From a virus, in the IMG/VR virus record IMGVR_UViG_3300049054_000009, positions 1-55,401 of that record: a stretch of 55,401 nt of DNA, one strand, 5' to 3'. The translations under genes were made by a program, and so were the position numbers. Under the pieces are notes generated by a model that ran no database searches, was not told the origin of the DNA, and was given only the letters and a program-made list of their open reading frames with translations. Every line of letters begins with the position of its first letter. The first letter of the stretch is position 1. Positions 1 through 55,401 of the stretch are shown in pieces.

Positions 1-127
1 GCATTAACCCTATATACAGTGCCATGTAAACACCAGATATTTTTGCCACCATAATGATACGTCTAGGGTTTACAAAAAACCAGTATGGTGTTTCATCGTT
101 CCATAATGAAATACCGGGTGGGTTACC
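1..127. repeat. Terminal direct overlap: bases 1-127 are identical to 55275-55401 (circular closure; unique length 55274 bp)
   Basis: Direct comparison of the two window ends; an ORF reads in frame across the junction. Confidence 0.95.
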
Positions 128-421
128 AGTAATAGCACCCGGATTAAATTCAAAGCCAGAATTAAGGTAACCAGTATAACCCTGTAATGCCCACCCATAA
201 ATATCAGTGCCTACATTAGCATATTTTCTAATGGCAACATAAATATTTTTATCACCAGAATAGTCTAAGCCTTTAAGATAAATAGTACCATTAGCTGCAA
301 GCTGGTCACTAACTACTATCCAATCACCAGTAGATACTGCAAACGTAATTAACTTATCAAGCAAGTCACTGTAATCTGTAGCATGTGGTGTAGCACCACC
401 ATCTGAAATTTCACTAGCCAT
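1..421 (-). CDS. Tail/virion structural protein, N-terminal part of a gene split by the window boundary (421->1, then 55274->54751; 945 nt, 314 aa)
   Basis: ATG at 421, one nt after the stop of 423..638. Open to base 1. 421+524 nt = 315 codons in one frame. The N-terminus MASEISDGG..DLLDKLITFAVSTGDW resembles the N-terminus of 53754..54743. Confidence 0.8.
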   Translation of the reverse strand, partial: MASEISDGGATPHATDYSDLLDKLITFAVSTGDWIVVSDQLAANGTIYLKGLDYSGDKNIYVAIRKYANVGTDIYGWALQGYTGYLNSGFEFNPGAITGNPPGISLWNDETPYWFFVNPRRIIMVAKISGVYMALYIGLM

Positions 422-422
422 A

Positions 423-638
423 TTATTCTATTATCCTTATGGGTAAGTTTTTATTTTCTAATCTTGATACTATTCTTTCTGCTGCATCATAGGCATCAGA
501 TTTACTAAAGAACGGTTCACCAGATGTAGCTATAATCTTGTTATTAGCAGCTAGCCAGTGCCAGAACCATACTTGCCCGGTCAAAGGTGCAGTTATGGTA
601 TCTTGTTTTAATACTTCTATTCTTTCTATATTATCCAT
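423..638 (-). CDS. DUF1508/YegP-like small protein
   Basis: 71 aa. The motif WFWHWLAANNKIIATSGEPFFSKSDAYDAAERI matches the YegP repeat pattern (xFxLxAxNGxxIAxSexYxsKxxA). Its start overlaps the tape-measure stop by 8 nt. Confidence 0.6.
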   Translation of the reverse strand: MDNIERIEVLKQDTITAPLTGQVWFWHWLAANNKIIATSGEPFFSKSDAYDAAERIVSRLENKNLPIRIIE

Positions 639-4533: not shown

Positions 4534-4534
4534 G

Positions 4535-5454: not shown

Positions 5455-5493
5455 GCTGGTTTTTTCCTTTTTATTTCTTAATAAAGTTTTATT

Positions 5494-5538
5494 TACAAAA
5501 TGTCACCTTGCTGGTTTTAGAAACACATGCAAGGTGAC
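5494..5538 (-). terminator. Hairpin terminator/attenuator after the major tail gene
   Basis: 10-bp stem gtcaccttgc (5502-5511) pairs with gcaaggtgac (5529-5538). On the minus strand it is followed by ATTTTGT. Confidence 0.55.
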
Positions 5539-5563
5539 TATGAGTTTTAGCTGTTAGTTTAGA

Positions 5564-6343: not shown

Positions 6344-6400
6344 ATTTTTATTTTTCCTTTTTTATTATTTGGTATCTAGGCTGTTTAGCAGCCAGTTTGT

Positions 6401-6886: not shown

Positions 6887-6912
6887 ATCTTCTTATTTTC
6901 CTTATTTTAAAT

Positions 6913-8516: not shown

Positions 8517-8519
8517 AAC

Positions 8520-9643: not shown

Positions 9644-10666
9644 CTATACGTTCATCACTACCATAGCACTAGGGTAATACAGAACTGCACCACCATTATG
9701 ACCATCATGTATTTCTATTTCACGTGGCACTTGTTCTTCACCCTTATCAATAATTTTCTGATAAGCACCCGGTGCTGAATTAGGGTTATTAGCATTACGT
9801 GTCATTAAGTAGTTGCCAATTTGCCCACCATCTGTTCTGACACCTACCACTAATACCTTGCCATCACCAATGTAAGGCACAAAAGTGCCAGCATCATCTT
9901 TGTAACCTTCGTCATAAATTTCAATCTGTGGTAACCCTTCACCTAGCAGCACACCATTAATTTCAGTCAGATTAAGAACGGTAAGCAGCCCTGATGTTCT
10001 TCTACCAGCCATGTCATTTACGTTAGTATTTGACACTAAGCGGTTAAAGGTTACCCGGTTCATAATAGCACGGGCATTTGCACCAAAACTTACACCTTTA
10101 CCACGTGAAAGTAATTGAATGTCACGAAAGTTTTTAAGTGGCACTGCTGTAGCACTGGTAGCCCATGTAACACCAGCAGTGTAGGTATTCAGCACATAAG
10201 TATCAGTGTGCAAGATAGCACCATTAGCAGCAGATACAGAAAAAGTGCCAGTGGTCAGCAAAAGCCAGCCTAGCTGTTCAATTCTGTCATAACGTCTGGC
10301 TAACAGTCTATCTTGACGTTTTGCTACAAGGTCATTAACATCTATTGCTGCATTAGTTAATTGACCGTAATTTCTTCTTTTGGTAATTTCTTGTTCATCA
10401 ATTACCATGTGTTCACCATACACGCCCGGTTCTGCTACATAGCGTTTTGCGCCTACATGCTGTACTCTAGGTGGTCTGCCATTAAGCCCACGCACCTGCT
10501 GCAAGCCTGTATAGTCATCTTCTTGTTCCCATTCTAACGTGTGGTTATCAAGGGTATCAATAGGTAGAATGGTAAAAATCATTCTACGTGCTTCAAGGTT
10601 TGCTGCCTTGATAGCTGCTACTGTTCTAAGCACCCGGTTAGTAGGGTAGATTAATGCTTGTGCCAT
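9644..10666 (-). CDS. Major capsid protein (lambda gpE-like)
   Basis: 340 aa, in the lambda-type order S49 protease - scaffold - decoration - capsid, with a strong ribosome-binding region. Confidence 0.8.
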   Translation of the reverse strand: MAQALIYPTNRVLRTVAAIKAANLEARRMIFTILPIDTLDNHTLEWEQEDDYTGLQQVRGLNGRPPRVQHVGAKRYVAEPGVYGEHMVIDEQEITKRRNYGQLTNAAIDVNDLVAKRQDRLLARRYDRIEQLGWLLLTTGTFSVSAANGAILHTDTYVLNTYTAGVTWATSATAVPLKNFRDIQLLSRGKGVSFGANARAIMNRVTFNRLVSNTNVNDMAGRRTSGLLTVLNLTEINGVLLGEGLPQIEIYDEGYKDDAGTFVPYIGDGKVLVVGVRTDGGQIGNYLMTRNANNPNSAPGAYQKIIDKGEEQVPREIEIHDGHNGGAVLYYPSAMVVMNV

Positions 10667-10711
10667 ATTTTTTATTTTTCCTTTTATTGAATTTCTTAGC
10701 CTTAGCAGCTA

Positions 10712-11534: not shown

Positions 11535-12227
11535 TTACACACCTTCTGGTGCATTAATAGCAAACTGATTAAAAGCCTTGCCTAAGTTAATAGGTCTTTC
11601 TACCTTGCCATCATTGGTAGCTATAACTACCTTACCTTCTTTCATAGCTTGAACAGATTGCATGCCTATTTCTGTTTTGCCTAATAATGCAGTAACCATA
11701 GCAGCATCTTTTTCTGATTCTGTTCTGTTATCCACAGCACCAGTGGTGGGCAAAATAACAGCAGTGGCACTGGCTACAGCTTCTGTAAGCATGTGATTTA
11801 CAGGTCTGGCATTAATACTGGCTTTATATTGATTTAATGCAGCAGGGTCATCAAGACTGGCAAGCTGCACAAAAAGCTGCTGCACAGCAGTTTGTTCTGC
11901 TGGTGCAATCTTGCCAGCATTAACAGCCATAAAGGTCTGACATTCAGCAGTAATACGTGCTGTTTTTTCTTGTGCAAGCTGTGCTAGAACTGCCTGCATA
12001 CCTTCATTACCACCGGGCATTACTACAGCATGTGGCTGTGCAGGTGGTGCTACTGGTGCAGGTGCAGTAATAACGGGCTGTGTAATTGGTGCAGTGTTTA
12101 CAGATGCAGCCATTTGCAGGTATTCTGCCTGTTCTGCTTCTGCTGTTACACCCATATCTACTAATGCTGCCTTTTGTTCATCAGGTGACAGACCAGCCAG
12201 CATTTTTGCTAAAATTTCCTTAGTCAT
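11535..12227 (-). CDS. Scaffolding-like protein
   Basis: 230 aa, Ala/Gln-rich, between the protease and the decoration gene. Confidence 0.5.
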   Translation of the reverse strand: MTKEILAKMLAGLSPDEQKAALVDMGVTAEAEQAEYLQMAASVNTAPITQPVITAPAPVAPPAQPHAVVMPGGNEGMQAVLAQLAQEKTARITAECQTFMAVNAGKIAPAEQTAVQQLFVQLASLDDPAALNQYKASINARPVNHMLTEAVASATAVILPTTGAVDNRTESEKDAAMVTALLGKTEIGMQSVQAMKEGKVVIATNDGKVERPINLGKAFNQFAINAPEGV

Positions 12228-13149
12228 ATATTTCTATTTTCCTTATTTTTATTTGATTTTCTGACAAGGCAGCAGTGACTACATTACGTAAGCCTGCCAC
12301 TACCCTTTCACTTACCACAGCACCCATGCTGGCTGCTTGATAGCTACCATCTTGCTGTAATTCCATTAAAATATCTTCAAAGCTACCTAAGCGGTCAGCC
12401 ATACCTACTGCTATGGCATCTGCTGCATACAGTAAACCACCTTGCCCAAACTTTTCATTTACTGTATCTACAGTAACACCACGCATGCTAGCCACATCAT
12501 CTATAAACATAGTTTCTGCTGTGTCTATTTCAGCTTGTATAAGGCTTTCACCCTTGCTAGTGTCAGCAGGTGCATTTTTGTTTACTGCATACTTAGAAGT
12601 AAACCGCTTTTGATTAGGGTTTTTAGCTATATTTGCTATAGCCATGATACCTATAGAACCTACACGGGCTGTTCTGTGCATTATAATCTGGTCACATGCC
12701 ACTGCCAGCCAGTAGCCAGCACTTGCACAAAGGTCACCTACATAAGCCCAAATTGGTTTTTTACCACGTGCTGCAAAAATGATACTAGCTAATTCAGCTA
12801 TACCATTTACTTCACCACCCGGTGTATCAAAATCAAAAAGAATAGCCTTTACTTGTGGGTCATTTAAGGCTGCATAAAAGTCTTTTGCTATCGTTTGAAC
12901 ACTAGCACTATTACCACTAAGGGCATCAAATAAGGCTGCACGTCTAAAAATAACGCTATGCACAGGTATGATGCTAACACCACCACGTATTTCTACAGTG
13001 CGTGTGTTTTCAAGTGGCTTACCTAGCTGTGTGGACACTGCCACCGGGTCAGTAACACCAGCAGCAATAGATTCAATAATATCTAAATATTCTGGTGTAA
13101 CACCCCATGCTATAGTGCTGGCTATTCGTAGTGCTGTAGGTATGCCCAT
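12220..13149 (-). CDS. Prohead protease, S49 (SppA/ClpP-fold, lambda gpC-like)
   Basis: Motifs DTPGGEVNG and GDLCASAGYWLAVACD (Ser nucleophile context). Follows the portal gene. Confidence 0.85.
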   Translation of the reverse strand: MGIPTALRIASTIAWGVTPEYLDIIESIAAGVTDPVAVSTQLGKPLENTRTVEIRGGVSIIPVHSVIFRRAALFDALSGNSASVQTIAKDFYAALNDPQVKAILFDFDTPGGEVNGIAELASIIFAARGKKPIWAYVGDLCASAGYWLAVACDQIIMHRTARVGSIGIMAIANIAKNPNQKRFTSKYAVNKNAPADTSKGESLIQAEIDTAETMFIDDVASMRGVTVDTVNEKFGQGGLLYAADAIAVGMADRLGSFEDILMELQQDGSYQAASMGAVVSERVVAGLRNVVTAALSENQIKIRKIEIYD

Positions 13150-20947: not shown

Positions 20948-21283
20948 TTATTCTGGTTTTAGTATCTGCATAATAGCAGCTATCTGGCTAAGTGGTGTAG
21001 GTTCATCTACACCTAGCACATTTCTAAACTGATTACAAATATTATCAGCAGCTTCTATGCCAGCCTTAGCACCTTCTAGCATAGCACGGATATTATCTAA
21101 AGTAATACCACCTACAGATGATGCACCTGCTACTTCAATCTGGTCAAGTAATTCTTTAGCTTCTTGTGCTATACCTTGCTGTTCAATAATACCTAACACT
21201 AAGCCCTGTATAATTATTTCTACATCAGTATCACTGATAGTGGCAGCTAATTGTGGGTTACTTACATTAAGTAGCTGTATCAT
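20948..21283 (-). CDS. Hypothetical protein
   Basis: 111-aa ORF. Confidence 0.5.
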   Translation of the reverse strand: MIQLLNVSNPQLAATISDTDVEIIIQGLVLGIIEQQGIAQEAKELLDQIEVAGASSVGGITLDNIRAMLEGAKAGIEAADNICNQFRNVLGVDEPTPLSQIAAIMQILKPE

Positions 21284-21864
21284 AATTTCACCCTTCTACC
21301 ATCACACAGCACGGTTAGTTCTGCATAAGGCACTGCATCTTGCCTATGCACCCGGTTAGTTACTTTGCATTTACTGCAAGTCACTGCATTAGCATCAGCC
21401 CTGATAGGTGAAACACGCCACTGCATATCTAAAAGTATTTGCAGGTCTGGTGGCAGGTGGTCTGGTGACTTCACAAATTTACCACCAGCATCTTTTGTGC
21501 CAGTGGCTATTTTATCCATATTATTCTGATGCACTGCCAGAAACATAGCCTTAGCATTAATGCCATGTGCTACAAAGCTGCCTATGACCACATACAGCAA
21601 GTCAGTCAAGCCATCTGCCACAGCTTCAAGGTCTTTAGTCTGGTATGCTTCAATTAATTCATCTAGTTCTTCACGTATTAACCTTACCCTAAGCTGCTGC
21701 ACATCACTGCCAGCAAGTGTAGGCACGTCTGGTGTAATTTGGTCAGCAGCCTGCATAAATTGTTTCATCAGTATTTCTAATGAAAAATGATTATGGCATT
21801 TGATATTTTCTATAGCTATAGCATCTGGTGATGCCTTCTTTTCAAATTTCTTTATTGTCATCAT
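21280..21864 (-). CDS. mazG: MazG-like nucleoside triphosphate pyrophosphohydrolase with a C-terminal Cys-containing extension
   Basis: The motif RVRLIREELDELIEAY...AVADGLTDLLYVVIG is an all-alpha MazG/HisE-type EExxE/D pattern. Start moved to 21864, where AAGGAAAAACAAAACA precedes the ATG. Confidence 0.65.
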   Translation of the reverse strand: MMTIKKFEKKASPDAIAIENIKCHNHFSLEILMKQFMQAADQITPDVPTLAGSDVQQLRVRLIREELDELIEAYQTKDLEAVADGLTDLLYVVIGSFVAHGINAKAMFLAVHQNNMDKIATGTKDAGGKFVKSPDHLPPDLQILLDMQWRVSPIRADANAVTCSKCKVTNRVHRQDAVPYAELTVLCDGRRVKL

Positions 21865-22069
21865 TGTTTTGTTTTTCCTTTTTTGGTATGTAACCTGCTG
21901 CATAATCTTCATTACCGTAATTAGCATGACCTTCACAATAGTAGCCCATATAGCAATCATCACCCATTTCTACATAGCAAGTATCTATTTCACCATAGCA
22001 AGGCTGGTCTAGTTCATCTTCATACCAATTACATAACGTAAGATTATATTTATCTTTTTCTTCTATCAT
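21842..22069 (-). CDS. Small acidic Cys-rich protein
   Basis: 75-aa ORF with 6 Cys; ATGA-coupled to the upstream gene. Confidence 0.45.
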   Translation of the reverse strand: MIEEKDKYNLTLCNWYEDELDQPCYGEIDTCYVEMGDDCYMGYYCEGHANYGNEDYAAGYIPKKEKQNNDDNKEI

Positions 22070-24799: not shown

Positions 24800-25972
24800 T
24801 TATTTTCCTTTTTGTTTTTCTAGTTCTATTTCACTTGCCAGATATGTGGCAGCTTGCTGTAAATCTTCTAACCGGGTGGCTGATGACTTCTTGCCAGCAC
24901 GTAACAGATACTTTAATACATTACCTTCAAAGAAATTTAAGCCATAGTGCCTAATAATCTTGAATGGTTCATACACATTATCTGGCTGGTAGTAATCAGG
25001 TCTTATCTGGTCAGCACGTTTTTCTTCTTTAGGTGCAGCAGCATCTTGCCTATGTGACCATTCATCTTTACACCCTTCTGTGCAAAAATAAACAGTGCCT
25101 AATAATTCATGTGGCTGTGCAGCCAGACTGGTTTGCACTGTAGGGTAATTAGAATGTAGTTCACGGTCTAAATTTCTGCCACAAGCAAAGCAGTGCCATT
25201 TACTAAAACCTTGCTTACTACGTTCTACAGCAGCAGCCTTTTCTTCTGGTGTAGTGCTAATGGTCATGCTGCCTACCTTATTTTTCTGGTATTCATCTTT
25301 ACATTGGCTACTACAAAATGGCACATCACCACCAGCTTCACCTAGAACTATATGCTGACCAGTAATGATTTTGCCACATGGAAAGTAGCCACACCTTAAA
25401 GCTGGCACGGGTGGCAAGCAAGTATGCCCCATAAAATCACCATTCTGCTTACCTTTATAGCTGCCTTTATAATCACACCACAAGCTAGGTGCTTTTTGAT
25501 GGCACGGGTAGCTTAAAAATTCTGCTTTATATTCATCTTTGCAGCCATCATCATCACAAAAGAAAAGTGTTTCTTTGCCATTAAACCAGCTAGGATAATT
25601 ATAAGCAGCATTAGTAAATCTTCTATCACACTGGTAGCAGTTAGTAACACCAGTGCCAGCTTTCTTTACTTCTTCTTCTACCCATGCAACAAAATGCCCG
25701 GTGCAGCAGCAGAAAACTTTAGCACTGGTCTTGTGCTGCTGCCAAACTACCCAAAAGCCTTTTTCTGGTATTTTGTTACAATAGGCACAGGGCTTACTTA
25801 AATCATATTTAGGCACATGGTAGGCTTGCCTGCCATCTACACCACCACAAGCTGGTGCTTTACCCTGCAAAATAAGTAAGCATTTTTCGTGATACCATAA
25901 TTCATTATTTACCACACCTTCTTTATTAGGTATATCTATTTCACCTTTACATTTCATGCAGGTCACTACCAT
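24800..25972 (-). CDS. Cys-rich protein: repeated FCxxxCKDE(Y/W) zinc-ribbon (TRASH/FCS-like) modules fused to a DUF3310-like C-terminus
   Basis: FFCDDDGCKDEY, PFCSSQCKDEY, YFCTEGCKDEW and more CxxC pairs. The C-terminus PDYYQ..EPFKIIRHYGLNFFEGNVLKYLLRAGKK..EDLQQAATYL follows the DUF3310 pattern. Confidence 0.55.
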   Translation of the reverse strand: MVVTCMKCKGEIDIPNKEGVVNNELWYHEKCLLILQGKAPACGGVDGRQAYHVPKYDLSKPCAYCNKIPEKGFWVVWQQHKTSAKVFCCCTGHFVAWVEEEVKKAGTGVTNCYQCDRRFTNAAYNYPSWFNGKETLFFCDDDGCKDEYKAEFLSYPCHQKAPSLWCDYKGSYKGKQNGDFMGHTCLPPVPALRCGYFPCGKIITGQHIVLGEAGGDVPFCSSQCKDEYQKNKVGSMTISTTPEEKAAAVERSKQGFSKWHCFACGRNLDRELHSNYPTVQTSLAAQPHELLGTVYFCTEGCKDEWSHRQDAAAPKEEKRADQIRPDYYQPDNVYEPFKIIRHYGLNFFEGNVLKYLLRAGKKSSATRLEDLQQAATYLASEIELEKQKGK

Positions 25973-26982
25973 AATTTACCACCTGCCTTTAAAATTTCTG
26001 CCTGCTTTTCAAGACCGGGTAGATTAGGTATAAAGTTTAATCTGTTTTCACCTTTGATGAATTTTCTAAGCTGATGCCACCCGGTGCTGAAATTACCTTG
26101 ATACTTACACCTTACTTGCAGTGTGTCAGTTAAGGAATTTTCAAGAAAGGCAAGCTGTGAAGATTCTATGGCTAAAGTATGTTCACACGGGCTGCCTTGA
26201 TGTTCAAAGGGTGAAGGGTGCATGCCAGTTAGCAGCTTATCATACACATTTAAATGGTGTGATACATCACGGTCACCATCATGGTTAAGATAGCTAACAC
26301 CAGCACACCTGCCTACAGAAAGCTGCTTTTGTATTTCTAGCACTTCATCTTCTGGTGCAGATTTTCTACCATCAGTATGCTGGCTAGCTGCCACTTCTAT
26401 ACATTCATCTATGCTTTTAGGGTCATCTGCATAAGGTAAGTGCCACTGACCGGGCTGCAAGGTCTTAGGGTCACCCATGTAATAAGCATACTGCATAGCA
26501 TCAGCCAGTGCCTTAAATTCTGGCTGTGCATCTTTGTGGCATCTTTGCCAAAACATATTATCAAAGTCTGTGGCAGTTAAAATAGCAGTGTGCCAGTTAA
26601 ATGGTTCTAATAGTCGGTTAGCTACCTGCTTATGTAGTTTAAGATTATTAACTAAATAATTGACACGGGTAATAATAGATGTGCTGGCATCTTTCCATAC
26701 TCTTTTAGCTTCATCTATTAAACCTTGTTCTAATTCATTACTAGCCTGCATGCCAGCTTGATTTAATCCAAAGTGAATAGGTAAAGCAGGGTTATCTAAT
26801 ATCTTTTGTATAATTACCTTAGAAGGTATAGCCCTGCTACTGGCACTATTCTTACTTATTACTTTATGGGTGTTTACTTCTGCTAGAATGTATCTATGAA
26901 AAGTAACTACAAAGGTGGTTAGCCTAACACCATTAGGTGCTACACTATCACATATTATTTGTGCTGATGGTTTATTTGTCAT
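25966..26982 (-). CDS. thyX: ThyX-like (flavin-dependent thymidylate synthase family) protein with a divergent signature
   Basis: ICDSVAPNGVRLTTFVVTFHRYILAEVNTHKVISKNSASSRAIP matches the ThyX motif region, but reads THK..S....SSR where the canonical form is RHR..S....S.R. Confidence 0.65.
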   Translation of the reverse strand: MTNKPSAQIICDSVAPNGVRLTTFVVTFHRYILAEVNTHKVISKNSASSRAIPSKVIIQKILDNPALPIHFGLNQAGMQASNELEQGLIDEAKRVWKDASTSIITRVNYLVNNLKLHKQVANRLLEPFNWHTAILTATDFDNMFWQRCHKDAQPEFKALADAMQYAYYMGDPKTLQPGQWHLPYADDPKSIDECIEVAASQHTDGRKSAPEDEVLEIQKQLSVGRCAGVSYLNHDGDRDVSHHLNVYDKLLTGMHPSPFEHQGSPCEHTLAIESSQLAFLENSLTDTLQVRCKYQGNFSTGWHQLRKFIKGENRLNFIPNLPGLEKQAEILKAGGKLW

Positions 26983-28422: not shown

Positions 28423-28650
28423 TTATTGATTGTCAAAAAGGGTGCTTTTATCCTTCTTAATTGGTTTTCTACGTTTTTTGGCTGGTGGTAACTTCTGACC
28501 GCAAAAAGGGCAAAAGGTAAGCATGATAGCATGCACCACACATTCATTAGTGTGCCACCTTCTGCCACTGGCAAGTATTTTAGATTCTAAAACAGCATTT
28601 ACAAAATGGGTGCAGCAGGCATTATCTATGCCCGGTAAATCATTTTGCAT
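28423..28650 (-). CDS. Small zinc-ribbon protein
   Basis: Contains CCTH...CPFCGQKL and a basic tail. The start may be 28650 (MQNDL) or 28698. Confidence 0.45.
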   Translation of the reverse strand: MQNDLPGIDNACCTHFVNAVLESKILASGRRWHTNECVVHAIMLTFCPFCGQKLPPAKKRRKPIKKDKSTLFDNQ

Positions 28651-29176
28651 TTTTGTGGGATTTTTTACGGGCTTGCAAGGTGGTATCAGCTTCATCAAAG
28701 GTAGCAGCTATAGTGCCACTGATACTAACAGCCGTGCCATCAGGCAAAATAAAAGGTGCATACATAGCTTCTATAGTGTCACGCACTTCTTCTGCTAGAT
28801 GCACCGGGCAAAGTATCACAAATTCATCACCACCATATCTAAACACACGTTCTGCCAGCTTATAGCGTGATGCTACCAGCTTTATCACGGCTGCCATGTT
28901 CTTTAGAACACCATCACCAGTAGTATGGTTAAGCACCTTATTGACAAATTTGAAGTTATTAGCATCAAATAAGATAACAGCAGTGCTTCTGTCAGCTTCT
29001 GCTGTAGGTCTGGCAAGGTCAAATGCCCTTCTATTAGCCAGACCAGTAAGCTGGTCAATATTAGCAGCCCGTTCTGCCTTGTTTCTTAAATCCTTACCTT
29101 CTGGAAAAACGGTATCAGCTACATACTTTCTGACAGTATGAAATAGTGGCTTTTGCGGTAAAATTGTAAATTCCAT
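28640..29176 (-). CDS. Stand-alone GGDEF-domain protein (predicted diguanylate cyclase)
   Basis: LTGLANRRAF, FDANNFKFVN, GDGVLK and RYGGDEF are all present. There is no RxxD I-site and no sensor domain. Start is ATG 29176, or alternatively GTG 29200. Confidence 0.8.
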   Translation of the reverse strand: MEFTILPQKPLFHTVRKYVADTVFPEGKDLRNKAERAANIDQLTGLANRRAFDLARPTAEADRSTAVILFDANNFKFVNKVLNHTTGDGVLKNMAAVIKLVASRYKLAERVFRYGGDEFVILCPVHLAEEVRDTIEAMYAPFILPDGTAVSISGTIAATFDEADTTLQARKKSHKNAK

Positions 29177-29209
29177 ATATTTAAGGGTGGTGTTTAACAC
29201 CAGAAGGTA

Positions 29210-29399: not shown

Positions 29400-29696
29400 C
29401 TAAAATAAGCCACCACTGTCAATTAAATATTTCAGCCACTTGATATATTCAGCCACATCTATATGCTGCTGACTGTCAGCACCATACCAGAACACTGGTT
29501 CTTTATTAGGTTCTACAGCTATACACCATTCAAACCAGTATGGTGCTGCATCTTCTATGATTACAGAACCTAAGAACCATGTGCCACCCACAGGCTTGAT
29601 GTAGAATGGTATAGGGTTATCTACCTGCATTTTTCTGATGTGTATAATGGCATTACGTATGCCAGAATTACCTATGTTATTGATTGTATGTTTCAT
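29400..29696 (-). CDS. Hypothetical protein
   Basis: 98-aa ORF; ATGA overlap with the HNH gene. Confidence 0.5.
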   Translation of the reverse strand: MKHTINNIGNSGIRNAIIHIRKMQVDNPIPFYIKPVGGTWFLGSVIIEDAAPYWFEWCIAVEPNKEPVFWYGADSQQHIDVAEYIKWLKYLIDSGGLF

Positions 29697-30004
29697 TTTG
29701 TTCTTTTCAGGGTCAAAAAAGCCCGGTAAGTAAATTTATTAGATTTTTCATTATTACACCTGTGACATGCCAGCACATAATTACTATCTTCATCTTTACC
29801 ACCATTAGCCTGTGCTATCTTGTGGTCAAGTGTAGCCAGTCTGTGCCAGTTTTCATAGCCAGTGCTATACTTCTTCATATCTTTATGCAAAATAGTCTTG
29901 ATGCCACAGTAATGGCAGTAGGGAAAGGCTAGATAAAGCCTAAGCAGTGCTAGCCTTCTTTTAGCCAGCACAGTTTTAGATGCCTTCTTTTTTCTTTTCA
30001 CCAT
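29693..30004 (-). CDS. HNH endonuclease
   Basis: CHYCG...LDHKIAQANGGKDEDSNYVLACHRCNNEKSN. Confidence 0.85.
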   Translation of the reverse strand: MVKRKKKASKTVLAKRRLALLRLYLAFPYCHYCGIKTILHKDMKKYSTGYENWHRLATLDHKIAQANGGKDEDSNYVLACHRCNNEKSNKFTYRAFLTLKRTK

Positions 30005-30377
30005 TTATCTTTCTACCTTTCCTTAAACCTTTGGGTGTGTGCTTCATGGCACGGGCATTACATGCAGGGCAAAGCTGGTGCAGCTTGCCATAAGCCTTGA
30101 TACGCTTTTCAGTGTGCCTATTATCAGCAGCCCATATACGTGTGATGGTCAAAGTGCCACCAGCCCTTACCATAGCAGCAGTAAGCCTAGCTGCACCATA
30201 GCTGCACAGTTCACCCGGTGCATGTGGTGCATGATTCAAGCCACAGGCTACATGGTCTGCCAGCCGTTCAATGGCAGCCCGTTTAGTGCTGCCTAAATAA
30301 TGTGACACAGTAACACCCGGTCTATTACCTAGTGCTACTGTGCTGCATATTAAATAACATCTTTTGCTTCTGGTCAT
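29976..30377 (-). CDS. GIY-YIG-like nuclease-fold protein with C-terminal CPxC
   Basis: CYLICS...HYLGSTKRAAIERLADH...EKRIK...LCPAC. Start at 30377 is ATGA-coupled to the upstream stop. Confidence 0.45.
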   Translation of the reverse strand: MTRSKRCYLICSTVALGNRPGVTVSHYLGSTKRAAIERLADHVACGLNHAPHAPGELCSYGAARLTAAMVRAGGTLTITRIWAADNRHTEKRIKAYGKLHQLCPACNARAMKHTPKGLRKGRKINGEKKKEGI

Positions 30378-31621
30378 TTTGTTTGATAGCCTGCACTTTG
30401 CCATGCTGCCTGTAAAAATTCACTGCCAGCCTTCTTAGGTTCATCTATCTTTCTTAATGCCCTAAGCAGTTCTACTGTGGTGTCAAAATCTTGTGGGTAA
30501 CAGTCTATCAAGCTGGTAGCAAGTTTAATTATTTCAGGGTCAGCATTTTTCTGGTCAGCAGATAAATTAACCACAGCTACCCGGTGCTGCTGTGTTTCAT
30601 CTAAGACCACTTTAGGTGCTGCACCCGGTCTAATTTCAGTATGCCCTAAAGGTGCATCACCAGCTATAAATACCATGCTATCTGCTGGTATGCCCATAGC
30701 AGTATTCATGGCTGCATTAAGGTCATTATGGTAAGTAGCTACTGCTTTATCAGCTAGCTTTTCTACAGCTTCACTAATAAAACCACGTGCAGCTTCTTTG
30801 ATAGCTTCACCTACTGCTTCTACAGTTTCTTTGACTTCACCAGCTTCTACAAAGTCAGCAGCACCCACCAGCATGGTAGTCTGTTCTGCTGCATCTTGCT
30901 TTCTAGCTTCTACACAAGTTTCTAAGGTGCAGCCAGACCATTCACAGCAGCCACCAGCTTTATGCAGCTTAGGTGCAGCTTTCTGTGCAGCCTTGTCAGC
31001 ACGGGCTACTTCTTTGGCAGCCTTCTTAGCAGCTTTTTCTTCTACTGCTGCTTCTTCACGGGCATAAACTTCTGGAAAGATGATTCTATACAGTTCTTCA
31101 CCTATCTGACCGCGATATTTATACAGCAATAAGCTGCCATAGCCTGCATCTGACCGGGTAAGCTGTGACTTGTTAGCCAGTGTATGCCCATATTCTACAT
31201 CATTACGGTTAAAGCCAGCCATGTCATCACGTAAAGAACCATCACACACGGCTGCCAAATTTTGCAGGGCTTGATGAATAGCAGCTATTTTTTCATCTGA
31301 CATGGTAGCAGCTTCTATGGCTGCTTTAGTTTTACGGTCTGGCTGAAAGCTGGCAGCACGGTCTAAAAGCCTTTCATAAGTGGCAGGCAAGAATTTACCA
31401 GCAGCATACATCAGTTCTACTGTATCAGCAGCTACATCAATTTTATCAAAGTGCTGCTTAATGGTGCTGGCAGCTACTGAAATATTTTCAGTAGCCCATG
31501 CACCCTGCTGTGGGTTATTCCATCTAAAGCCAGCCTGTGCAGCAAGGTGTTTTAAGTCAAAAGGTAAAACCAGTATAAAGACTGGCAAGCTGTTATTATT
31601 GGTAGTATGAAATAAATACAT
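30374..31621 (-). CDS. Hypothetical protein with a DUF5710-like N-terminal motif and an Ala/Lys-rich linker
   Basis: Start moved to 31621, preceded by GGAAAAACAAAATT. The motif LVLPFDLKHLAAQAGFRWNNPQQGAWAT resembles the VPFxxKDxAKxLGARWD pattern. Confidence 0.5.
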   Translation of the reverse strand: MYLFHTTNNNSLPVFILVLPFDLKHLAAQAGFRWNNPQQGAWATENISVAASTIKQHFDKIDVAADTVELMYAAGKFLPATYERLLDRAASFQPDRKTKAAIEAATMSDEKIAAIHQALQNLAAVCDGSLRDDMAGFNRNDVEYGHTLANKSQLTRSDAGYGSLLLYKYRGQIGEELYRIIFPEVYAREEAAVEEKAAKKAAKEVARADKAAQKAAPKLHKAGGCCEWSGCTLETCVEARKQDAAEQTTMLVGAADFVEAGEVKETVEAVGEAIKEAARGFISEAVEKLADKAVATYHNDLNAAMNTAMGIPADSMVFIAGDAPLGHTEIRPGAAPKVVLDETQQHRVAVVNLSADQKNADPEIIKLATSLIDCYPQDFDTTVELLRALRKIDEPKKAGSEFLQAAWQSAGYQTK

Positions 31622-31667
31622 AATTTTGTTTTTCCTTTTCAGTGGGCTGGTTAAGCCAGCCCGGTCA

Positions 31668-32099
31668 TTAGATTCTAAAGCCACCTACTTTTTCTACACC
31701 ATCAGCAGTAACAGTGACTGTTAGATAAGGTGAAATAACTTTCAGGGTAACAGCAGCAGCAGGTGCAGTGGTAGCACTTGCCACCACCTTTTCTGCCACC
31801 TGTTTAGCCTTGCACCGGGCTACATGATACTGATAAGCCACATTGATATGCTTGCACTGTCTGCCATGCTTACGAATATTAGCAAAATCAGGGCAAGTGC
31901 AGGCTGCTAAACGGTTACCATTAGCTGCTACAGCAAAGGTTACCAGATACTGGCTGCTGGTGCTGGTGTTAGTAATGTAATACTGTCTAGCATTATCAGC
32001 TACCAGTTCTATTTTGAAGTGGTCAGACTTCTGTGGAAAACGAAATACATCAGGGTTAATTACCACAAATGCTACATTATTTACTGCTGATTGAATCAT
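31668..32099 (-). CDS. SWIM zinc-finger protein
   Basis: CTCPDFANIRKHGRQCKH follows CxCx(n)CxH. Start moved to 32099, preceded by AAGGAAAAACAAAATT. Confidence 0.7.
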   Translation of the reverse strand: MIQSAVNNVAFVVINPDVFRFPQKSDHFKIELVADNARQYYITNTSTSSQYLVTFAVAANGNRLAACTCPDFANIRKHGRQCKHINVAYQYHVARCKAKQVAEKVVASATTAPAAAVTLKVISPYLTVTVTADGVEKVGGFRI

Positions 32100-33345: not shown

Positions 33346-35040
33346 TTATTTTTCTAAGATGAAATTATTTAAGCCACGTATGTAGCAGTTAGAAGCAGGT
33401 GATAGCAGCACTAATGATTCTTTGCATCTAGTCATACCTACATAAAACTGCCTGATAACTTCATCTTTGCCTTCTACAGTAGCATAGTTATCATAAGCCC
33501 GTTTAGATATGTCAGGCATTAAATAGACTACATCAGCTTCACCACCCTTAACAGAATGAATAGTGCCAATAACTATTGGTGGTGTCATCTTTAAGGCAGC
33601 TACCCGGTGCTTTTCTATAATATTGCAGATGTAATCAAACTTATTTACATTAGCTTTTTGCAGGTGGTCAATAAACCAGCCTAGATGCCCATTCACCATC
33701 TGCACAAAATCTTCTGGCTGTTCTAACATTCTGGCAAATTCTAAGGCAGTGGGTGGCTGGTCAGCTTCTTCTATCTGCTTACCTGCACCACGTTTTAAGA
33801 AAGTAGATATAGACATAACTGAAAGCCAGCTATCTAGTTCTTCTTTTGTCCATAACTTGGCATCTATCATACGCTGCCAGCTTTCTGCATCATTCTGCAC
33901 TTTCCACCCTTTTAAGCTAGGTGCAAGGTAGGCAAGTATGGCAGCTACACCTTTGCCTTGCCCTAATGGTGACCAGTCACCACGTTTTTTTCTAAATGGA
34001 TTATGAAAGGGTAAGCCAGCAGACCTAAGTGCTGATTTAAGATTATTCAGCATGTAAGCACAGCTTGCCAGAATCATTATAGTTTTACCCTGCCTTAAAT
34101 AATATTCTGCATCTTTTAATAAATTATCTACCTGTATGTAGTCAGCATCTGGTAACCATCTGCTTTCACCTAGCACCGGGCTGCCATCTTCATTAATACG
34201 TGGCTTATATTCTTTCTGCTGCCTGTTAGATAATCTTTGCACCCACCTATTAGCCACCTTATGCACTACCTGTGGCACACGGTAAGACTGTGTAAGAATA
34301 TGCTTATGACTGTCTGGTATCTTAGCACCATAGAAAGTTTCTGCTGATGCACCCTTAAAGCCATATATGCACTGGTCATCATCACCAGCTACTATAAGAT
34401 GTTCTGTAAATTTACCCCACTTTCTGACTAATGCCCATTCAAGTGCAGTTAAATCTTGTGCTTCATCTATAAACATTACATTAGGGTTACCCGGTGCATA
34501 AGGTATTTTATCAAGTGCCAGTGCTATCATGTCAGTATAATCTATGCTATTGGTATCAGCTTTGAATTTTTCCCACCTAGCTGCAAATTCTTTTACAGTG
34601 GCTGATGCCCACAAGTCAGAACGTCTTGCCCTTTGAAGCTGATACCGGGCTAACATTTCATTACCTTCACCACCTTCATCTATTTGCCCATCATCATGTG
34701 GGTTATCTACATCAGTGCCAGCCTTGCCTATGCAGAACTGTGGGTGCTTCTTATTCCATTCAGCTAGTAATTCTTTGTCAGTTTCCAAAATTCTAGGCTT
34801 GCCTATGGCACGGTAAGCATGTGCATGCAGGGTAGCCACCTGTTCTTTTTTTAAGGGCAAGTCACGGCTGACTAATTCTTGTGCAGCAGAAGTGGTAAAG
34901 CTGGCTACTAAAATATTATCACTGCCATGTTTTTGGGCTGCCAGCTTTATCTGTCTGGTCATGTAGGTGGTTTTACCACAGCCGGGTGAACCATAAATCT
35001 GGTGTTCACCATCTTGATTTTCATATTCAAAATTTTTCAT
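33346..35040 (-). CDS. SF1 UvrD/PcrA-like DNA helicase
   Basis: GSPGCGKTT (motif I), FIDEAQD (II), DDDQCIYGFKGA (III), SYRVPQ (IV), TIHSVKGGEADVV (V), YVGMTRCKESL (VI). Confidence 0.85.
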   Translation of the reverse strand: MKNFEYENQDGEHQIYGSPGCGKTTYMTRQIKLAAQKHGSDNILVASFTTSAAQELVSRDLPLKKEQVATLHAHAYRAIGKPRILETDKELLAEWNKKHPQFCIGKAGTDVDNPHDDGQIDEGGEGNEMLARYQLQRARRSDLWASATVKEFAARWEKFKADTNSIDYTDMIALALDKIPYAPGNPNVMFIDEAQDLTALEWALVRKWGKFTEHLIVAGDDDQCIYGFKGASAETFYGAKIPDSHKHILTQSYRVPQVVHKVANRWVQRLSNRQQKEYKPRINEDGSPVLGESRWLPDADYIQVDNLLKDAEYYLRQGKTIMILASCAYMLNNLKSALRSAGLPFHNPFRKKRGDWSPLGQGKGVAAILAYLAPSLKGWKVQNDAESWQRMIDAKLWTKEELDSWLSVMSISTFLKRGAGKQIEEADQPPTALEFARMLEQPEDFVQMVNGHLGWFIDHLQKANVNKFDYICNIIEKHRVAALKMTPPIVIGTIHSVKGGEADVVYLMPDISKRAYDNYATVEGKDEVIRQFYVGMTRCKESLVLLSPASNCYIRGLNNFILEK

Positions 35041-47991: not shown

Positions 47992-47994
47992 ATT

Positions 47995-51171: not shown

Positions 51172-51175
51172 AAAT

Positions 51176-52018
51176 TTAACCTACATTTTTAACACCCGTT
51201 TGAAAAGGGTTTTTCTTTGGTATTCTATCAAAGCAGCCACATGCACCACCAGTATCTGTGTATGCACCAAACTTACCAGCACAGGTAGAAAACAAATGGT
51301 CACAGCCAGCATAAGCCCGTAAAATTTCACCAGCTACTACATCAGTAGGGAAAGGTGAAAGCAGGGTAAGCACACCTGCTACATTTGCTGTAATTAATCG
51401 TATGTCAGTAACACCAGAATCTAGCACCCTTTCTACAAAGCCAGACTTAAACCACTGGTCTGGCTGTGCAGCCCATTCTGGTGCAGTTAAAGTAAAGCCA
51501 GAAGGTGGTGAAGATAAAGTGCCATCTATCCGAAAAGCAGAAGCTGGCACGGGGCAAAAGCCATCATAAAGAATATGCCCACACAAAGCACTAAAGGTTC
51601 TTCTAAGCCCTAAGCGGTCAAAAAGCACCGTGATAGGTGAACAGTTCAAATAGCTATTCTTATCATCAAACTTACAGCTTTGCACAAAGCCCTGCCAGTA
51701 AACATAAACATCAGCAGGGTCACCCCTGTGAAATTTGAAAACTACTAAAAAAATCTGCTGTGCTGGCACAAAAGCTACATATTGACGTGGTAAAATCCAT
51801 TCTTTACTGGCTTTGATGGTAATACGCTGTGCATTAATTTCTTGACTTTGACCAGTGCCAGAAGGTTCTAAGCCTTCAAGCGGTATATAATCTTCATCTA
51901 AATAAGTATGTATCTGGTCATCAGACGTATAAGTATAAGCCACCGTGCCAGCAGTGAATTTAAATAAAAATATGGGCTTGCCAGCCCGGTTAGATTTTTC
52001 AAAAATGTCAAAACTCAT
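51176..52018 (-). CDS. Tail tip protein, DUF2163 / BR0599-like
   Basis: 280 aa. N-terminus PIFLFKFTAG..YTYTSDD and C-terminus CDHLFSTCAGKFGAYTDTGGACGCFDRIPKKNPF follow the BR0599 pattern. Confidence 0.6.
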   Translation of the reverse strand: MSFDIFEKSNRAGKPIFLFKFTAGTVAYTYTSDDQIHTYLDEDYIPLEGLEPSGTGQSQEINAQRITIKASKEWILPRQYVAFVPAQQIFLVVFKFHRGDPADVYVYWQGFVQSCKFDDKNSYLNCSPITVLFDRLGLRRTFSALCGHILYDGFCPVPASAFRIDGTLSSPPSGFTLTAPEWAAQPDQWFKSGFVERVLDSGVTDIRLITANVAGVLTLLSPFPTDVVAGEILRAYAGCDHLFSTCAGKFGAYTDTGGACGCFDRIPKKNPFQTGVKNVG

Positions 52019-52020
52019 AA

Positions 52021-53754
52021 TTAAATAGTATCATCATACACATCAGTTATCAGTAAATCAGATGCAGCCACATTACCACTATGCCACTGTATTTCTACTG
52101 CATCTGCCTTAAGTGCAGAAGGTATTAAAAAGCATACCCGGTCTATCTGGCTTATTAAAATATCAGCACCTAGTGCAGTATCTATACCTATAGTTTCAGT
52201 GCCATCTTCATTAATGCCAGCACCCGTGATACGTCTAAAATATCTAGTGCCATTCTTTAGCTGTATCATAATATCACGTCTATTATAAGCAGGTGCATCA
52301 TCTATATAATAAAGGCTGGCATAGCCTATAGCGTTAATTAAGATATTAGTAGTAGCACTGGCAATATCTTGCACCACCTGCATATCTTTTGACCATGTAG
52401 GCTGCCAGAATGGTGCTAGCCTGCCTTTTCTATTATCAAGCCAGCCATAGTATTTTGCTATCTGTGAATGACCATTAAAGATTAAGCCAAAAGTATTAGA
52501 AGCATCTGGTGCAGGCTGGTCAGCTTCTATGTTGAATATACCTACATTTGCATCATTTCTGATTACCTGCTGTTCTAAGGTAAAACTTTGCGTGTTATCG
52601 TAATTACTTTTAGTAAGCAGCACAGGTAATGACCTATAAGTAGTTTCTGCTGCATACACTAAACGGTTTATGCTAAGGTATTGTGGCAGTAATTCAAAAC
52701 TGACTGGCACGGTATCTATATCTACTGTATGTTTTTGCCCTTGTAAATTTGGATTTACATAAGCTAATCTAGCTGGCATAACTACAGTTTTACCAGCTTG
52801 CCATTCTTTTACTAGGTTTACCTTTAAAGTTAGATAAGTGCTAAACACTTCATCTATTTCTACCAGTTCATAATTTTCTTCATTCTGCCACAGCATTACA
52901 TAGTTATCAGCATCATAGTCAAAGTAGGTAGTATTTACCTGCACTTCATTTTGACCAGAAGCAGCAGTAACTGCTAACCGGGTAGCATCTGACCAGATAG
53001 GTATAGCAAAAATTCTGGTTTGCCAGCCAGCTATAAGGGCTGCAAATAATGCCCTAAGTCTGGCTGCATTACTATTTGTGCTGGCAAGTAAGAACTGATA
53101 ACTTAAAGACCTTCTAGGTGCATTACGTAGCATTACTAGCTGTTCAATACCATCAAGACTTTTACCACTGCTGGTATTATACCATGCCAGCCTTTCATTT
53201 ATTCTTTCAGACCAGTTATGCTGAAATGGCATAACTAATACCCGTTTACCACTGACATATAAAAAATATTCTATGATTACATCATCAAAGGTTAAGGTAA
53301 AAAAACCATCAAACTGTGGGCTGCCTACAGTATTAATAACAAGATTCTTATAAGTGCTTTCTAGTGCTGCTATGACCAGTGGTGTAGTTACATCAAAAGT
53401 AACACCAAGTAAGTCAGTAGCTACTACATCTTCTAAGGTCACTGGTATAAAGTAACCGTTCCAAATTTCTATAGGTCTGACTTGCTGGCTAACTAAATTA
53501 CCTACATCAATACGGTTAGGTATGATATGCACCCGGTTATACCATAAATCGGCAAAGTCACCCATTAACAGACCATCAAAAGTATCCACAGATGGTGTAG
53601 GGAAAATGTCAGTTTTAACGCCACCAGTTTCAAGATATTCACCTAGAAAGCATTTATCTGTAGGGTATTCAGCCACATCTATAGTGTCTAAGGCACTATC
53701 AGTAAGTAACCCTAGTATGTTATTATCTAGCAGAATACCATTATATGATGCCAT
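52021..53754 (-). CDS. Distal tail / baseplate-hub-like protein
   Basis: 577-aa ORF upstream of the BR0599-like and J-like genes; positional call. Confidence 0.45.
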   Translation of the reverse strand: MASYNGILLDNNILGLLTDSALDTIDVAEYPTDKCFLGEYLETGGVKTDIFPTPSVDTFDGLLMGDFADLWYNRVHIIPNRIDVGNLVSQQVRPIEIWNGYFIPVTLEDVVATDLLGVTFDVTTPLVIAALESTYKNLVINTVGSPQFDGFFTLTFDDVIIEYFLYVSGKRVLVMPFQHNWSERINERLAWYNTSSGKSLDGIEQLVMLRNAPRRSLSYQFLLASTNSNAARLRALFAALIAGWQTRIFAIPIWSDATRLAVTAASGQNEVQVNTTYFDYDADNYVMLWQNEENYELVEIDEVFSTYLTLKVNLVKEWQAGKTVVMPARLAYVNPNLQGQKHTVDIDTVPVSFELLPQYLSINRLVYAAETTYRSLPVLLTKSNYDNTQSFTLEQQVIRNDANVGIFNIEADQPAPDASNTFGLIFNGHSQIAKYYGWLDNRKGRLAPFWQPTWSKDMQVVQDIASATTNILINAIGYASLYYIDDAPAYNRRDIMIQLKNGTRYFRRITGAGINEDGTETIGIDTALGADILISQIDRVCFLIPSALKADAVEIQWHSGNVAASDLLITDVYDDTI

Positions 53755-54743
53755 TAGTTTTCTTTAATTGCTACACCCCACCAGAAGGTAGGTGAATTAG
53801 CTACATTAGTCTTGGTCTTAAAAGGAAATACTCTAAAAGTATCACCACTGCCATCATCCATCTGCTGTGCTGGTGTAAGATTACGAATATTACAAAAATA
53901 AATATCTGGCAGCTTACCTACTACAGAAAAGTTTGTGTTATTATCTCTATTACCAGTGCCATCACGTGTTATACATATTTCAACTGGTGATAGAACAGGC
54001 TGCTGATTAAATAAGTTAGACATATTAGCTACACTATTACAAAGCATGCTAATAGTTTCAAAGAATTTAGGCATAATAGGCACTACAGTTTCATTAGAAG
54101 CTGGTAACCAGCCAGTATTACCATCAATACTACTGCCATACATATAAGCATTAGGATTTAAGCCCATATTTGTAGTTTGTGTAGTATTACTGTAGCCTGC
54201 TATAGCACTTAATGATGCTGGTACATTACCACTATAAGCACTATTAGCTGCTGCATAAAAAGCACCACCAGACCATGTGCATGTTTTAGTAACCCTGCCA
54301 AACATTAACCACTGATACTGACCTGTGGCATATTCAATAAAAACATAAATCATGTCACCACGTGCAAAGAAATAATAGGCAGGCATAGCACCACTAATGC
54401 CTATCATGCCTACCATTCTTGGCAGGTCGCCACTACCACCACCAGCTATATAAGGTTTACCGGGCTGCATAAGCCAGCTATTAGCACCGTTATAGCTTGT
54501 GCTACCTACCACTAACAGTGAATTGCTGCCTGCTACTATATTAGACGTGCCATTATTAATATTTTCGGCTACTGATGCCCTAAAATTCATAAATACATCA
54601 GAATCTAATTGTAAATGCACACGCCTACCACTGCCTTCTACAGCGTTAAAATTACTTGTCCATCCGTTTGTTACACAGAAAGATGCTAACGCATCTAGTA
54701 AATTTGGCACTGTGGTTATAGCACCTGTTTCAAATATAGCCAT
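53754..54743 (-). CDS. Tail-associated structural protein, distantly similar to the junction-spanning gene
   Basis: 329 aa. N-terminus MAIFETGAITTVPNLLDALASFCVTNGW parallels ..DYSDLLDKLITFAVSTGDW. Confidence 0.5.
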   Translation of the reverse strand: MAIFETGAITTVPNLLDALASFCVTNGWTSNFNAVEGSGRRVHLQLDSDVFMNFRASVAENINNGTSNIVAGSNSLLVVGSTSYNGANSWLMQPGKPYIAGGGSGDLPRMVGMIGISGAMPAYYFFARGDMIYVFIEYATGQYQWLMFGRVTKTCTWSGGAFYAAANSAYSGNVPASLSAIAGYSNTTQTTNMGLNPNAYMYGSSIDGNTGWLPASNETVVPIMPKFFETISMLCNSVANMSNLFNQQPVLSPVEICITRDGTGNRDNNTNFSVVGKLPDIYFCNIRNLTPAQQMDDGSGDTFRVFPFKTKTNVANSPTFWWGVAIKEN

Positions 54744-54750
54744 AATATTT

Positions 54751-55401
54751 TTATTCGTCTTTTATCGCAAAGAAGTTATATAAATCAGTTCTAAAAGTAT
54801 CTTGAAAAACTATGTAAGTGTCAGCACCTATATCTATGGTATCTTCTGTGCTTAGATTATAACCAGCTACAAAAAAAGCACCATCAAGAATACCTAGTGC
54901 ATCTGGTGTATCACCACGTAATAAACGCAAAGGCTTAACTGCATAATTACCATCAAAATCTGGTCTAAGGTTACGCCACCCTGCATTAACACCTTGTGCA
55001 TTATTAATAAATTTATCACAGTAAGGTGATACACCACGAATAGCAGCTACAGAACCACCCGGTATAGCGTATAGCTGATTTACGCTATAAATTTCTATCC
55101 ATATACCTGTAGATGTACGAACAAGTAAATTACCATTAGTAGATGGTATAAAAGGCACTGCCATACTGTTAGTAGTATCAGAATATCTATTCACAGCACC
55201 TGCTACACTTGTGCAAATAGTGCTGCCACCTATCACTAAAGGATATGCCCACTGACCTGCTGTACCATAAGGTAGCATTAACCCTATATACAGTGCCATG
55301 TAAACACCAGATATTTTTGCCACCATAATGATACGTCTAGGGTTTACAAAAAACCAGTATGGTGTTTCATCGTTCCATAATGAAATACCGGGTGGGTTAC
55401 C
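54751..55401 (-). CDS. C-terminal part of the junction-spanning structural gene (continuation of 1..421; bases 55275-55401 duplicate 1-127)
   Basis: The frame is open to the window end. The Met at 55326 in the ORF track is internal (..RRIIMVAKISG..). Confidence 0.8.
   Translation of the reverse strand, partial: GNPPGISLWNDETPYWFFVNPRRIIMVAKISGVYMALYIGLMLPYGTAGQWAYPLVIGGSTICTSVAGAVNRYSDTTNSMAVPFIPSTNGNLLVRTSTGIWIEIYSVNQLYAIPGGSVAAIRGVSPYCDKFINNAQGVNAGWRNLRPDFDGNYAVKPLRLLRGDTPDALGILDGAFFVAGYNLSTEDTIDIGADTYIVFQDTFRTDLYNFFAIKDE
55275..55401. repeat. Terminal direct overlap, second copy of 1..127
   Basis: Identical 127 bases. Confidence 0.95.

Follow-up and report, generated by a model that had tools for sequence, protein, structure and literature searches.

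Near-total depletion of the trinucleotide GAG/CTC in the 55-kb genome of an uncultured siphovirus and in six relatives

The IMG/VR virus record IMGVR_UViG_3300049054_000009 (positions 1 to 55,401; this whole stretch of 55,401 bp is called the window hereafter) is the nearly complete genome of an uncultured siphovirus from which the trinucleotide GAG and its reverse complement CTC have almost entirely disappeared. Only 20 copies of the pair were counted in 55,401 bases (4 GAG and 16 CTC on the + strand), as compared to 1347 expected from base composition and 958 expected from dinucleotide composition. Shuffling the sequence 100 times with preservation of its dinucleotides gave 962 ± 25 GAG plus CTC and no shuffle approached 20, which bears out the near-total depletion claimed in a preliminary description made by reading the letters of the window. 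The ratio of observed to expected GAG/CTC amounts to 0.015. For the most depleted trinucleotide in each of 77 further phage contigs, all 10 kb or longer, the median ratio was 0.43 and the lowest value 0.07, and the same measure gave 0.007-0.044 for the clade of GAG-free phages to which the window belongs. The identical sequence was recovered in independent datasets, which excludes an assembly artefact. GAG/CTC is not the only word affected: a much larger set of short sites has been purged, which had not been remarked in the preliminary description, and the finding is an extreme new form of restriction-site avoidance.

Removal of GAG and CTC at the DNA level

On the + strand, the residual GAG sites are located at positions 5542, 6589, 16461 and 20520, and the residual CTC sites at 2338, 5311, 7141, 8700, 9234, 10465, 22209, 23900, 26700, 32238, 44322, 48005, 50298, 52014, 53831 and 53945. 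The preliminary description had quoted five of these positions (CTC at 2338, 5311, 7141 and 10465; GAG at 5542) correctly, and the regions 1-1800 and 30001-31200 are indeed free of both words, as it had stated. The base 5' of the residual GAG is A or T in 19 of the 20 cases and none of them forms GGAG. Three of the 20 sites lie outside called genes, where about 90 would be expected by arithmetic from the overall and in-gene counts. The pair AAG/CTT is not depleted (observed/expected 1.1). A general avoidance of the GA dinucleotide was considered and rejected, as off-frame GAA, GAT and GAC are not among the depleted words.

Clearly, the depletion does not depend on the reading frame. Sense-strand counts in codon phases 1, 2 and 3 were 5, 6 and 3 for GAG and 1, 1 and 1 for CTC, respectively, so that all three phases are affected and not phase 1 alone. 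When synonymous codons were shuffled while proteins and codon usage were kept, 336 off-frame CTC were expected on the sense strand and 2 were observed (z = -24), and for off-frame GAG 9 were observed as compared to 210 expected (z = -17). The earlier statement that this is not plain codon bias is thereby supported. The coding strand as a whole contains 4 CTC and 16 GAG, CTC being depleted at least as much as GAG. The context-dependent choice of arginine and alanine codons, first noticed in the capsid gene, holds genome-wide: for arginine, AGA before G is found in 6/228 cases and CGT before G in 139/215, and before C the codons GCT (0/895), CCT (0/278), TCT (0/218) and ACT (1/512) are practically never used. 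Similarly, codons of the type AGN follow a G-ending codon in 3 of about 870 cases. Dynamic programming showed that the minimum of GAG/CTC achievable by synonymous change alone is zero.

Also, the ribosome-binding sites have been remodelled. They typically read AAAGGAA, and of the upstream regions of 58 open reading frames 21 contain AGGA and 26 contain AAGG, while GGAG is missing from all of them. The example at 10667..10696 (- strand), with the sequence AAAAGGAAAAATAAAAAAT before the ATG, demonstrates that trimming of the Shine-Dalgarno motif to AAGGA also removes GAG. In relatives, the Shine-Dalgarno motif is AGGAGC or AGGAGT (sister phages) or GGAG or GAGG (a distant relative). Taken together with the phase-independence, the strand symmetry, the intergenic depletion and the persistence of the depletion in diverged relatives (see below), this demonstrates that GAG and CTC are removed at the DNA level, via synonymous and context-dependent codon choice, and the earlier proposal of selection on DNA rather than on translation is upheld.

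Related phages and the loss of other short sites

For comparison, about 120 loci were gathered via capsid and helicase homologues. The GAG-free clade consists of the window and of L116, L002/L086, L080, L118, L117 and L082/L120, where L080 and L118 reside on contigs of different assemblies and were pooled as one genome for clade-wide motif counts. Members of the clade have GC contents of 40-53%, capsid identities of at least 83% and identities of 40-70% for other proteins. The six further members share the depletion, with GAG observed/expected ratios of at most about 0.04, and they contain no GATC and no CCWGG, while CTGGG and TCGA are near zero. The wider family has a GC content of 50-70% and GAG observed/expected ratios near 1.

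Within the clade, 41-54% of the codons at conserved residues differ synonymously, and in the window alone 3781 synonymous single-base changes would each create a GAG or CTC. In simulations of neutral synonymous drift, about 140 sites were back at a codon turnover of 5% and about 890 at 43%; the residual density per clade lineage is 0.2-1.2 GAG/CTC sites per kb. As neutral drift would bring hundreds of sites back, these comparisons indicate that selection is ongoing in every clade member and that it acts on DNA. Where sister phages have GAG or CTC at conserved residues, the window shows the replacements GAG to GAA, xGA-G to xGT-G and xCT-C to xCA-C, as well as several leucine codons and the serine switch AGY to TCN. 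Many replacement routes with one outcome argue for selection rather than for a single mutational process.

Phages outside the GAG-free clade avoid GAG in a nested series of sequence contexts. The sister phages L083/L119 and L004/L122 (GAG observed/expected 0.46-0.48) avoid GGAGA and GGAGG (0-2 copies versus about 160 expected) and also CGAGC. L123 (0.33) avoids GGAG, and GAGG except after A, and L121 (0.10; capsid identity 78%) avoids GGAG, GAGG, TGAG and AGAG with CGAGY kept at about 0.4. In the core clade all 16 NGAGN contexts are avoided, each being at least 94% gone. A mosaic origin of L121 was rejected since its intermediate depletion is uniform along its 17 kb. The nested contexts suggest that discrete short specificities containing GAG exist in the host-phage system and accumulate along the lineage. 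When the strength of the purge was normalised for mutational opportunity over 192.5 kb, GATC was found 0 times versus 14.3 expected at the ratio of GAG, CCWGG 0 times versus 12.8 and GGAG 3 times versus 23. GATC, CCWGG and GGAG are therefore purged harder than AGAG/TGAG and the harm per site is uneven, which fits several enzymes of different prevalence, or one enzyme with flank preferences or density-dependent harm. The plateau of GAG above zero, compared with GATC and CCWGG at zero, hints at a weaker or density-dependent harm per GAG site, such as a nickase, or an enzyme acting on two sites at once, would cause.

The purge extends to many sites of the restriction type. In the window, 47 of the 64 six-base palindromes are missing altogether, whereas about 0.4 would be expected to be missing by chance. 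The absent ones include CAGCTG, CTGCAG, AAGCTT, GTGCAC, ATGCAT, CCCGGG, ACCGGT, GAATTC and TCTAGA, and the 17 palindromes that are kept, near their expected numbers, comprise all eight A/T-only ones and also CTATAG, TAGCTA, CACGTG, GCATGC, GCTAGC and TACGTA. No copies of GATC, GGCC, CCWGG, CTGGG/CCCAG, GGYRCC or GAAGCC were found in the window, TCGA occurs once, GTAC 24 times (about 200 expected) and CAAC/GTTG 21 times (185 expected). We know of no enzyme for a CAAC/GTTG site. CpG is at 0.26 of expectation, TCG/CGA, GCG/CGC and GGA/TCC are strongly depleted, and TGC, GCA, CAC and GTG are enriched; 159 GGA/TCC remain in genes and 74 of these are forced by the protein sequence. Across the clade, with six genomes pooled, GGNCC, RGCGCY, GAAGAC, CTGAAG and about 15 hexamer palindromes are absent. 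The core of the avoided set is thus formed by GAG, GATC, CCWGG, GGNCC, RGCGCY, CTGGG and about 15 hexamers. Further sites vary between strains, the avoidance of GGCC, GTAC, GCGC, AGCT, CTAG and CAAC differing among close relatives, which fits strain-variable restriction repertoires of the hosts.

Some additional peculiarities of composition were observed. CAAC/GTTG is avoided in most clade members and over-represented in L082/L120 (1.8-2.4 times), and CCCC/GGGG, GCCG/CGGC and CCAA/TTGG are also low. Of the remaining CpG, 70% are found within (A/C)CG(G/T). CCGG is present in 114 copies, 108 of which reside in the asymmetric hexamer ACCGGG/CCCGGT, in all three codon phases. It is confined in this way because TCC/GGA, GCCG/CGGC, ACCGGT and CCCGGG are avoided. 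Relative to base composition, ACCGGG/CCCGGT is about ten times too frequent, which is explained only partly, for example by the arginine codon CGG before G-initial codons. In the distant relatives L009 (contig JAJQRF010000007.1 of a Pyrinomonadaceae metagenome-assembled genome, MAG; 49855-70856) and L034, there are hardly any GGCC, GTAC and CCWGG, and about 20 kb of sequence lack 32-38 of the hexamer palindromes. Strong avoidance of sites is therefore widespread among those branches of the family that have a lower GC content.

Among the proteins of the window, none was recognised as a DNA methyltransferase. In the sister clade (L083/L119 and L004/L122; capsid 74-76% identical), a gene for a Dam-like methyltransferase is located directly after the UvrD gene and one for an MT-A70 methyltransferase about 10 kb upstream (Dam-like/MT-A70 loci at L119:1-687 and 11746-12552 and at L122:1-407 and 11749-12555). 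The slot just downstream of UvrD is variable. L123 carries a gene resembling that for 3'-phosphoadenosine 5'-phosphosulfate (PAPS) reductase there (L123:11783-12772), and in the clade of the window, where the UvrD-like helicase gene at 33346..35040 (- strand) was used as the anchor for comparison, the slot contains no methyltransferase gene. At the sister loci, GATC is present at 0.8-0.97 and TCGA at about 1 of expectation, and CAGCTG, CTGCAG, CCTAGG, CGTACG, GAAGAC and GGCGCC are still missing. Both clades seem to face overlapping restriction repertoires, with different counter-measures against a part of them. Self-methylation by Dam-like, MT-A70 or non-specific adenine methyltransferases is known from phages (PMC7544214; PMC3299994) and is the route of the sister phages, which keep GATC and many GAG, whereas the clade of the window has no methyltransferase and avoids the sites instead.

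Probable host restriction and alternative explanations

We infer that the selecting agent is probably a host DNA cleavage of the restriction-modification type, directed at very short, asymmetric sites that contain GAG. It is likewise probable that the phage escapes restriction by carrying no target sites and not by modification of its DNA. Each site lost would provide a small multiplicative gain in escape, which would allow the successive loss of about a thousand single sites, and the build-up probably proceeded stepwise from avoidance of GGAGR only, to GGAG and GAGG, to GGAG, AGAG and TGAG (any base but C before GAG) and finally to every GAG. One nuclease or nickase with a 3-bp specificity and a set of four or more enzymes with 4-5-bp specificities appear about equally likely. 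The preliminary description had listed a frequent-cutting or nicking host nuclease and several overlapping longer sites among the possible causes; both are plausible, and the second gains from the nested series. Only tentatively can we suggest a host restriction or nicking system with bare GAG/CTC as its effective site, possibly relaxed stepwise from GGAGR through GGAG. If such a system existed, it would have the shortest asymmetric restriction specificity known in prokaryotes, its matching methyltransferase would mark about one base in 40 of the host genome, and the clade would record an arms race in which the host specificity shortened as the phages lost sites.

Several points speak against an explanation by host restriction. 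No cognate nuclease or methyltransferase was seen. A restriction enzyme of prokaryotes that recognises bare GAG is not known to us, and a search of the literature turned up neither such an enzyme nor a precedent for a 3-bp methylation motif, nor any phage or bacterium from which an entire trinucleotide had been purged. Twenty sites remain in the window, so that GAG is not absolutely lethal. According to surveys (PMC6286503), phages seldom avoid the sites of Type I, Type IIG and Type III systems, which makes a strong avoidance of asymmetric sites atypical. Also, the evidence is all compositional and comparative.

As in the restriction-site avoidance of virulent phages (GATC, for example, is presumably absent from Staphylococcus phage K), host sites have been lost in the window in a strand-symmetric and synonymous manner, and the loss is strongest in phages without a methyltransferase of their own. 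In contrast to those cases, the avoided word is 3 bp long and asymmetric, about 1000 sites have been removed, and most hexamer palindromes have been lost and the Shine-Dalgarno motif reshaped at the same time. The documented cases of phage site avoidance are many and concern mainly orthodox Type II palindromes (PMC6286503). Nicking enzymes with three-base sites are found in chloroviruses, namely Nt.CviQII (R^AG) and Nt.CviPII (^CCD) (PMC3017599), and these systems prove that 3-bp asymmetric nucleases and matching methyltransferases exist in nature. Nicking that is dense on both strands fragments DNA, so that the harm depends on site density. However, the RAG specificity of Nt.CviQII does not fit the undepleted AAG/CTT of the window, and these enzymes are encoded by viruses of eukaryotic algae. 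No gene for a CviQII-type nickase or a matching methyltransferase was found in the window; in such a system, these would be host genes.

Another possibility raised in the preliminary description is a nuclease of the phage itself (GIY-YIG or HNH) that leaves a GAG-free genome intact; such an enzyme would cleave host DNA at GAG. The comparison disfavours this possibility and we consider it unlikely. The small HNH endonuclease gene at 29693..30004 (- strand; Pfam HNH, E = 5.9e-9) might be thought of in this context, as phage HNH nickases with 3-7-bp sites are known, one of them nicking GAG^CA (PMC3592412). However, among the genomes compared this gene occurs only in the phage of the window, where it overlaps both neighbouring genes, and no homologue was found in the five GAG-free relatives L116, L086, L118, L117 and L120, although the flanking genes are conserved in the first four. 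The HNH gene is probably a recent mobile insertion. The gene at 29976..30404 (- strand) encodes a stand-alone protein of 142 amino acids that was assigned to the GIY-YIG superfamily on the basis of conserved motifs and transitive homology. There was no direct match to a Pfam, NCBIfam or PDB profile; the assignment comes from a profile search, whose remote hits P0250 and P0273 in turn score above the Pfam threshold for GIY-YIG. An AlphaFold2 model of the protein had a predicted local distance difference test (pLDDT) score of 50 and a Foldseek search gave no significant result. The gene is present in each of the six GAG-free genomes of which the replication module was analysed, as a sparing nuclease would require, but divergent homologues (27-37% identity) exist in sister phages with about 300 GAG per 21 kb. 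That the gene is specific to the GAG-free clade was an idea dropped after a more sensitive tblastn search with other family members had found these homologues. The nuclease genes thus do not track the GAG-free state. Furthermore, GAG, GATC, TCGA and GTAC are partly restored together in L121, which suggests a change of host rather than the loss of one nuclease, and a self-encoded nuclease specific for GAG would be intolerable before the genome was GAG-free and cannot be the first cause. T4 endonuclease II is a small stand-alone GIY-YIG nuclease that degrades host DNA, T4 DNA being protected by hydroxymethylcytosine. The phage of the window also has a small stand-alone protein of the GIY-YIG superfamily, and a difference between phage and host DNA could spare the phage; unlike in T4, any protection would reside in the lack of the motif and not in base modification. 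Adjoining the GIY-YIG gene, 30374..31684 (- strand) encodes a 436-amino-acid protein that L121 and L123 share with the GAG-free clade; no homologue was detected in the sister clade, and the protein has no match in Pfam, PHROG, NCBIfam or PDB.

Restriction could also depend on modification, if a promiscuous host methyltransferase marked GAG or GA, a Type IV nuclease of the next host attacked the marks and loss of the motif removed them. Methyltransferases with short motifs and non-specific adenine methyltransferases exist (PMC7544214; M.CviQII, cited in PMC3017599), and the motifs that are purged here and kept by the methyltransferase-bearing sisters all contain GA (GAG, GATC, TCGA, GGA, CGA). 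We nevertheless give this explanation little chance, as sisters with their own adenine methyltransferases keep the motifs, which is the opposite of the expected selection. Even less probable is a mutational footprint, in which GAG/CTC would be destroyed by a repair bias or by a sequence-specific deaminase in the way that APOBEC acts on TC in some animal viruses. The GC content of the clade (39.5-53%) is below that of the wider family, and the depletion of CpG together with the enrichment of TGC, GCA, CAC and GTG would suit such a process. Yet the replacements follow no single dominant route and include transversions and multi-base switches of serine and arginine codons, L082/L120 combine a GC content of 52% with a GAG observed/expected ratio of 0.01, and dozens of unrelated palindromes are at exactly zero, which is beyond any single mutational process. 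Avoidance of a protospacer-adjacent motif (PAM) of a CRISPR system, such as GAG/CTC, agrees with the length of PAMs (2-5 nt) and with their effect on both strands, but seems highly improbable: targetable sites would fall only in proportion, hardly enough for a purge of 98%, and the motifs purged along with GAG are classical restriction palindromes. Finally, a cause at the level of RNA or translation, be it codon usage, avoidance of internal Shine-Dalgarno-like sequences or a ribonuclease toxin that cuts GAG, is scarcely credible. In its favour, the purge is strongest for GGAG and GAGG, which form the Shine-Dalgarno core; against it stand the equal or stronger depletion of CTC on the coding strand, the involvement of all codon phases and of intergenic DNA, and the absence of GAG from true ribosome-binding sites.

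With host restriction as the favoured explanation, the window illustrates that site avoidance can strip whole trinucleotides and most hexamer palindromes from a 55-kb genome while protein coding is unaffected, at the cost of remodelled ribosome-binding sites and a shifted base composition. The avoided set would be a fingerprint of the restriction repertoire of the host and predicts enzymes with 3-4-bp asymmetric specificities. Such enzymes would be novel, and of practical use wherever DNA is to be cut or nicked frequently. Related phages that avoid or methylate offer a natural comparison of the two strategies, and the series from GGAGR to GAG makes the stepwise evolution of avoidance testable.

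Gene content and relatives outside the clade

The window has a GC content of 39.5% and is about 93% coding, with nearly all genes on the - strand. Structural genes encode an HK97-type capsid (E family), a Mu-type portal, an S49 protease and a T4-like large terminase, and the tail genes encode a tape measure protein of 1300 amino acids and distal tail proteins like those of gene transfer agents (GTA). The major capsid gene at 9644..10666 (- strand; Pfam Phage_cap_E) contains one residual site, AGA-GTA, at 10465. For replication, UvrD and SNF2 helicases, a primase-polymerase and an RNase H-like exonuclease are present, and further genes encode ThyX, a nucleotide kinase, MazG and a GGDEF-domain protein in addition to the small HNH and GIY-YIG-superfamily proteins.

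When 11 kb of the window were compared with cultured phages by megablast, no match was obtained. The best capsid matches among cultured phages were those of Microcystis phages (32% identity), and a Microcystis phage is not depleted in GAG (observed/expected 0.70). Few taxa have as many restriction systems as bloom-forming cyanobacteria (PMC8262939), and the capsid matches together with this richness make a cyanobacterial host a lead, not an assignment. Matches of the terminase, tail, primase and ThyX proteins gave no host signal. Scans of bacterial genomes revealed only distant prophage relatives (41-57% identical), which reside in Pyrinomonadaceae and in other lineages, namely Armatimonadota, Planctomycetes and a Flavobacteriaceae MAG.

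No tRNA genes were found in the window. A cluster for nucleotide metabolism (24800-26982 and 21280-21963) encodes a divergent ThyX-like protein (PHROG thymidylate synthase, E = 1.9e-66; weak match to Pfam Thy1), a protein of 390 amino acids with a C-terminal DUF3310/nucleotide-kinase domain and a pyrophosphohydrolase of the MazG/PRA-PH type; the cluster yielded no established sign of hypermodified DNA. The GGDEF-domain protein (186 amino acids; 28640-29200; Pfam E = 2.5e-18) was not detected in the sister clade and is conserved in the GAG-free clade and in L121. The base composition of the + strand is skewed (T 18297, A 15232, C 12100, G 9772) and the convincing genes are all on one strand.

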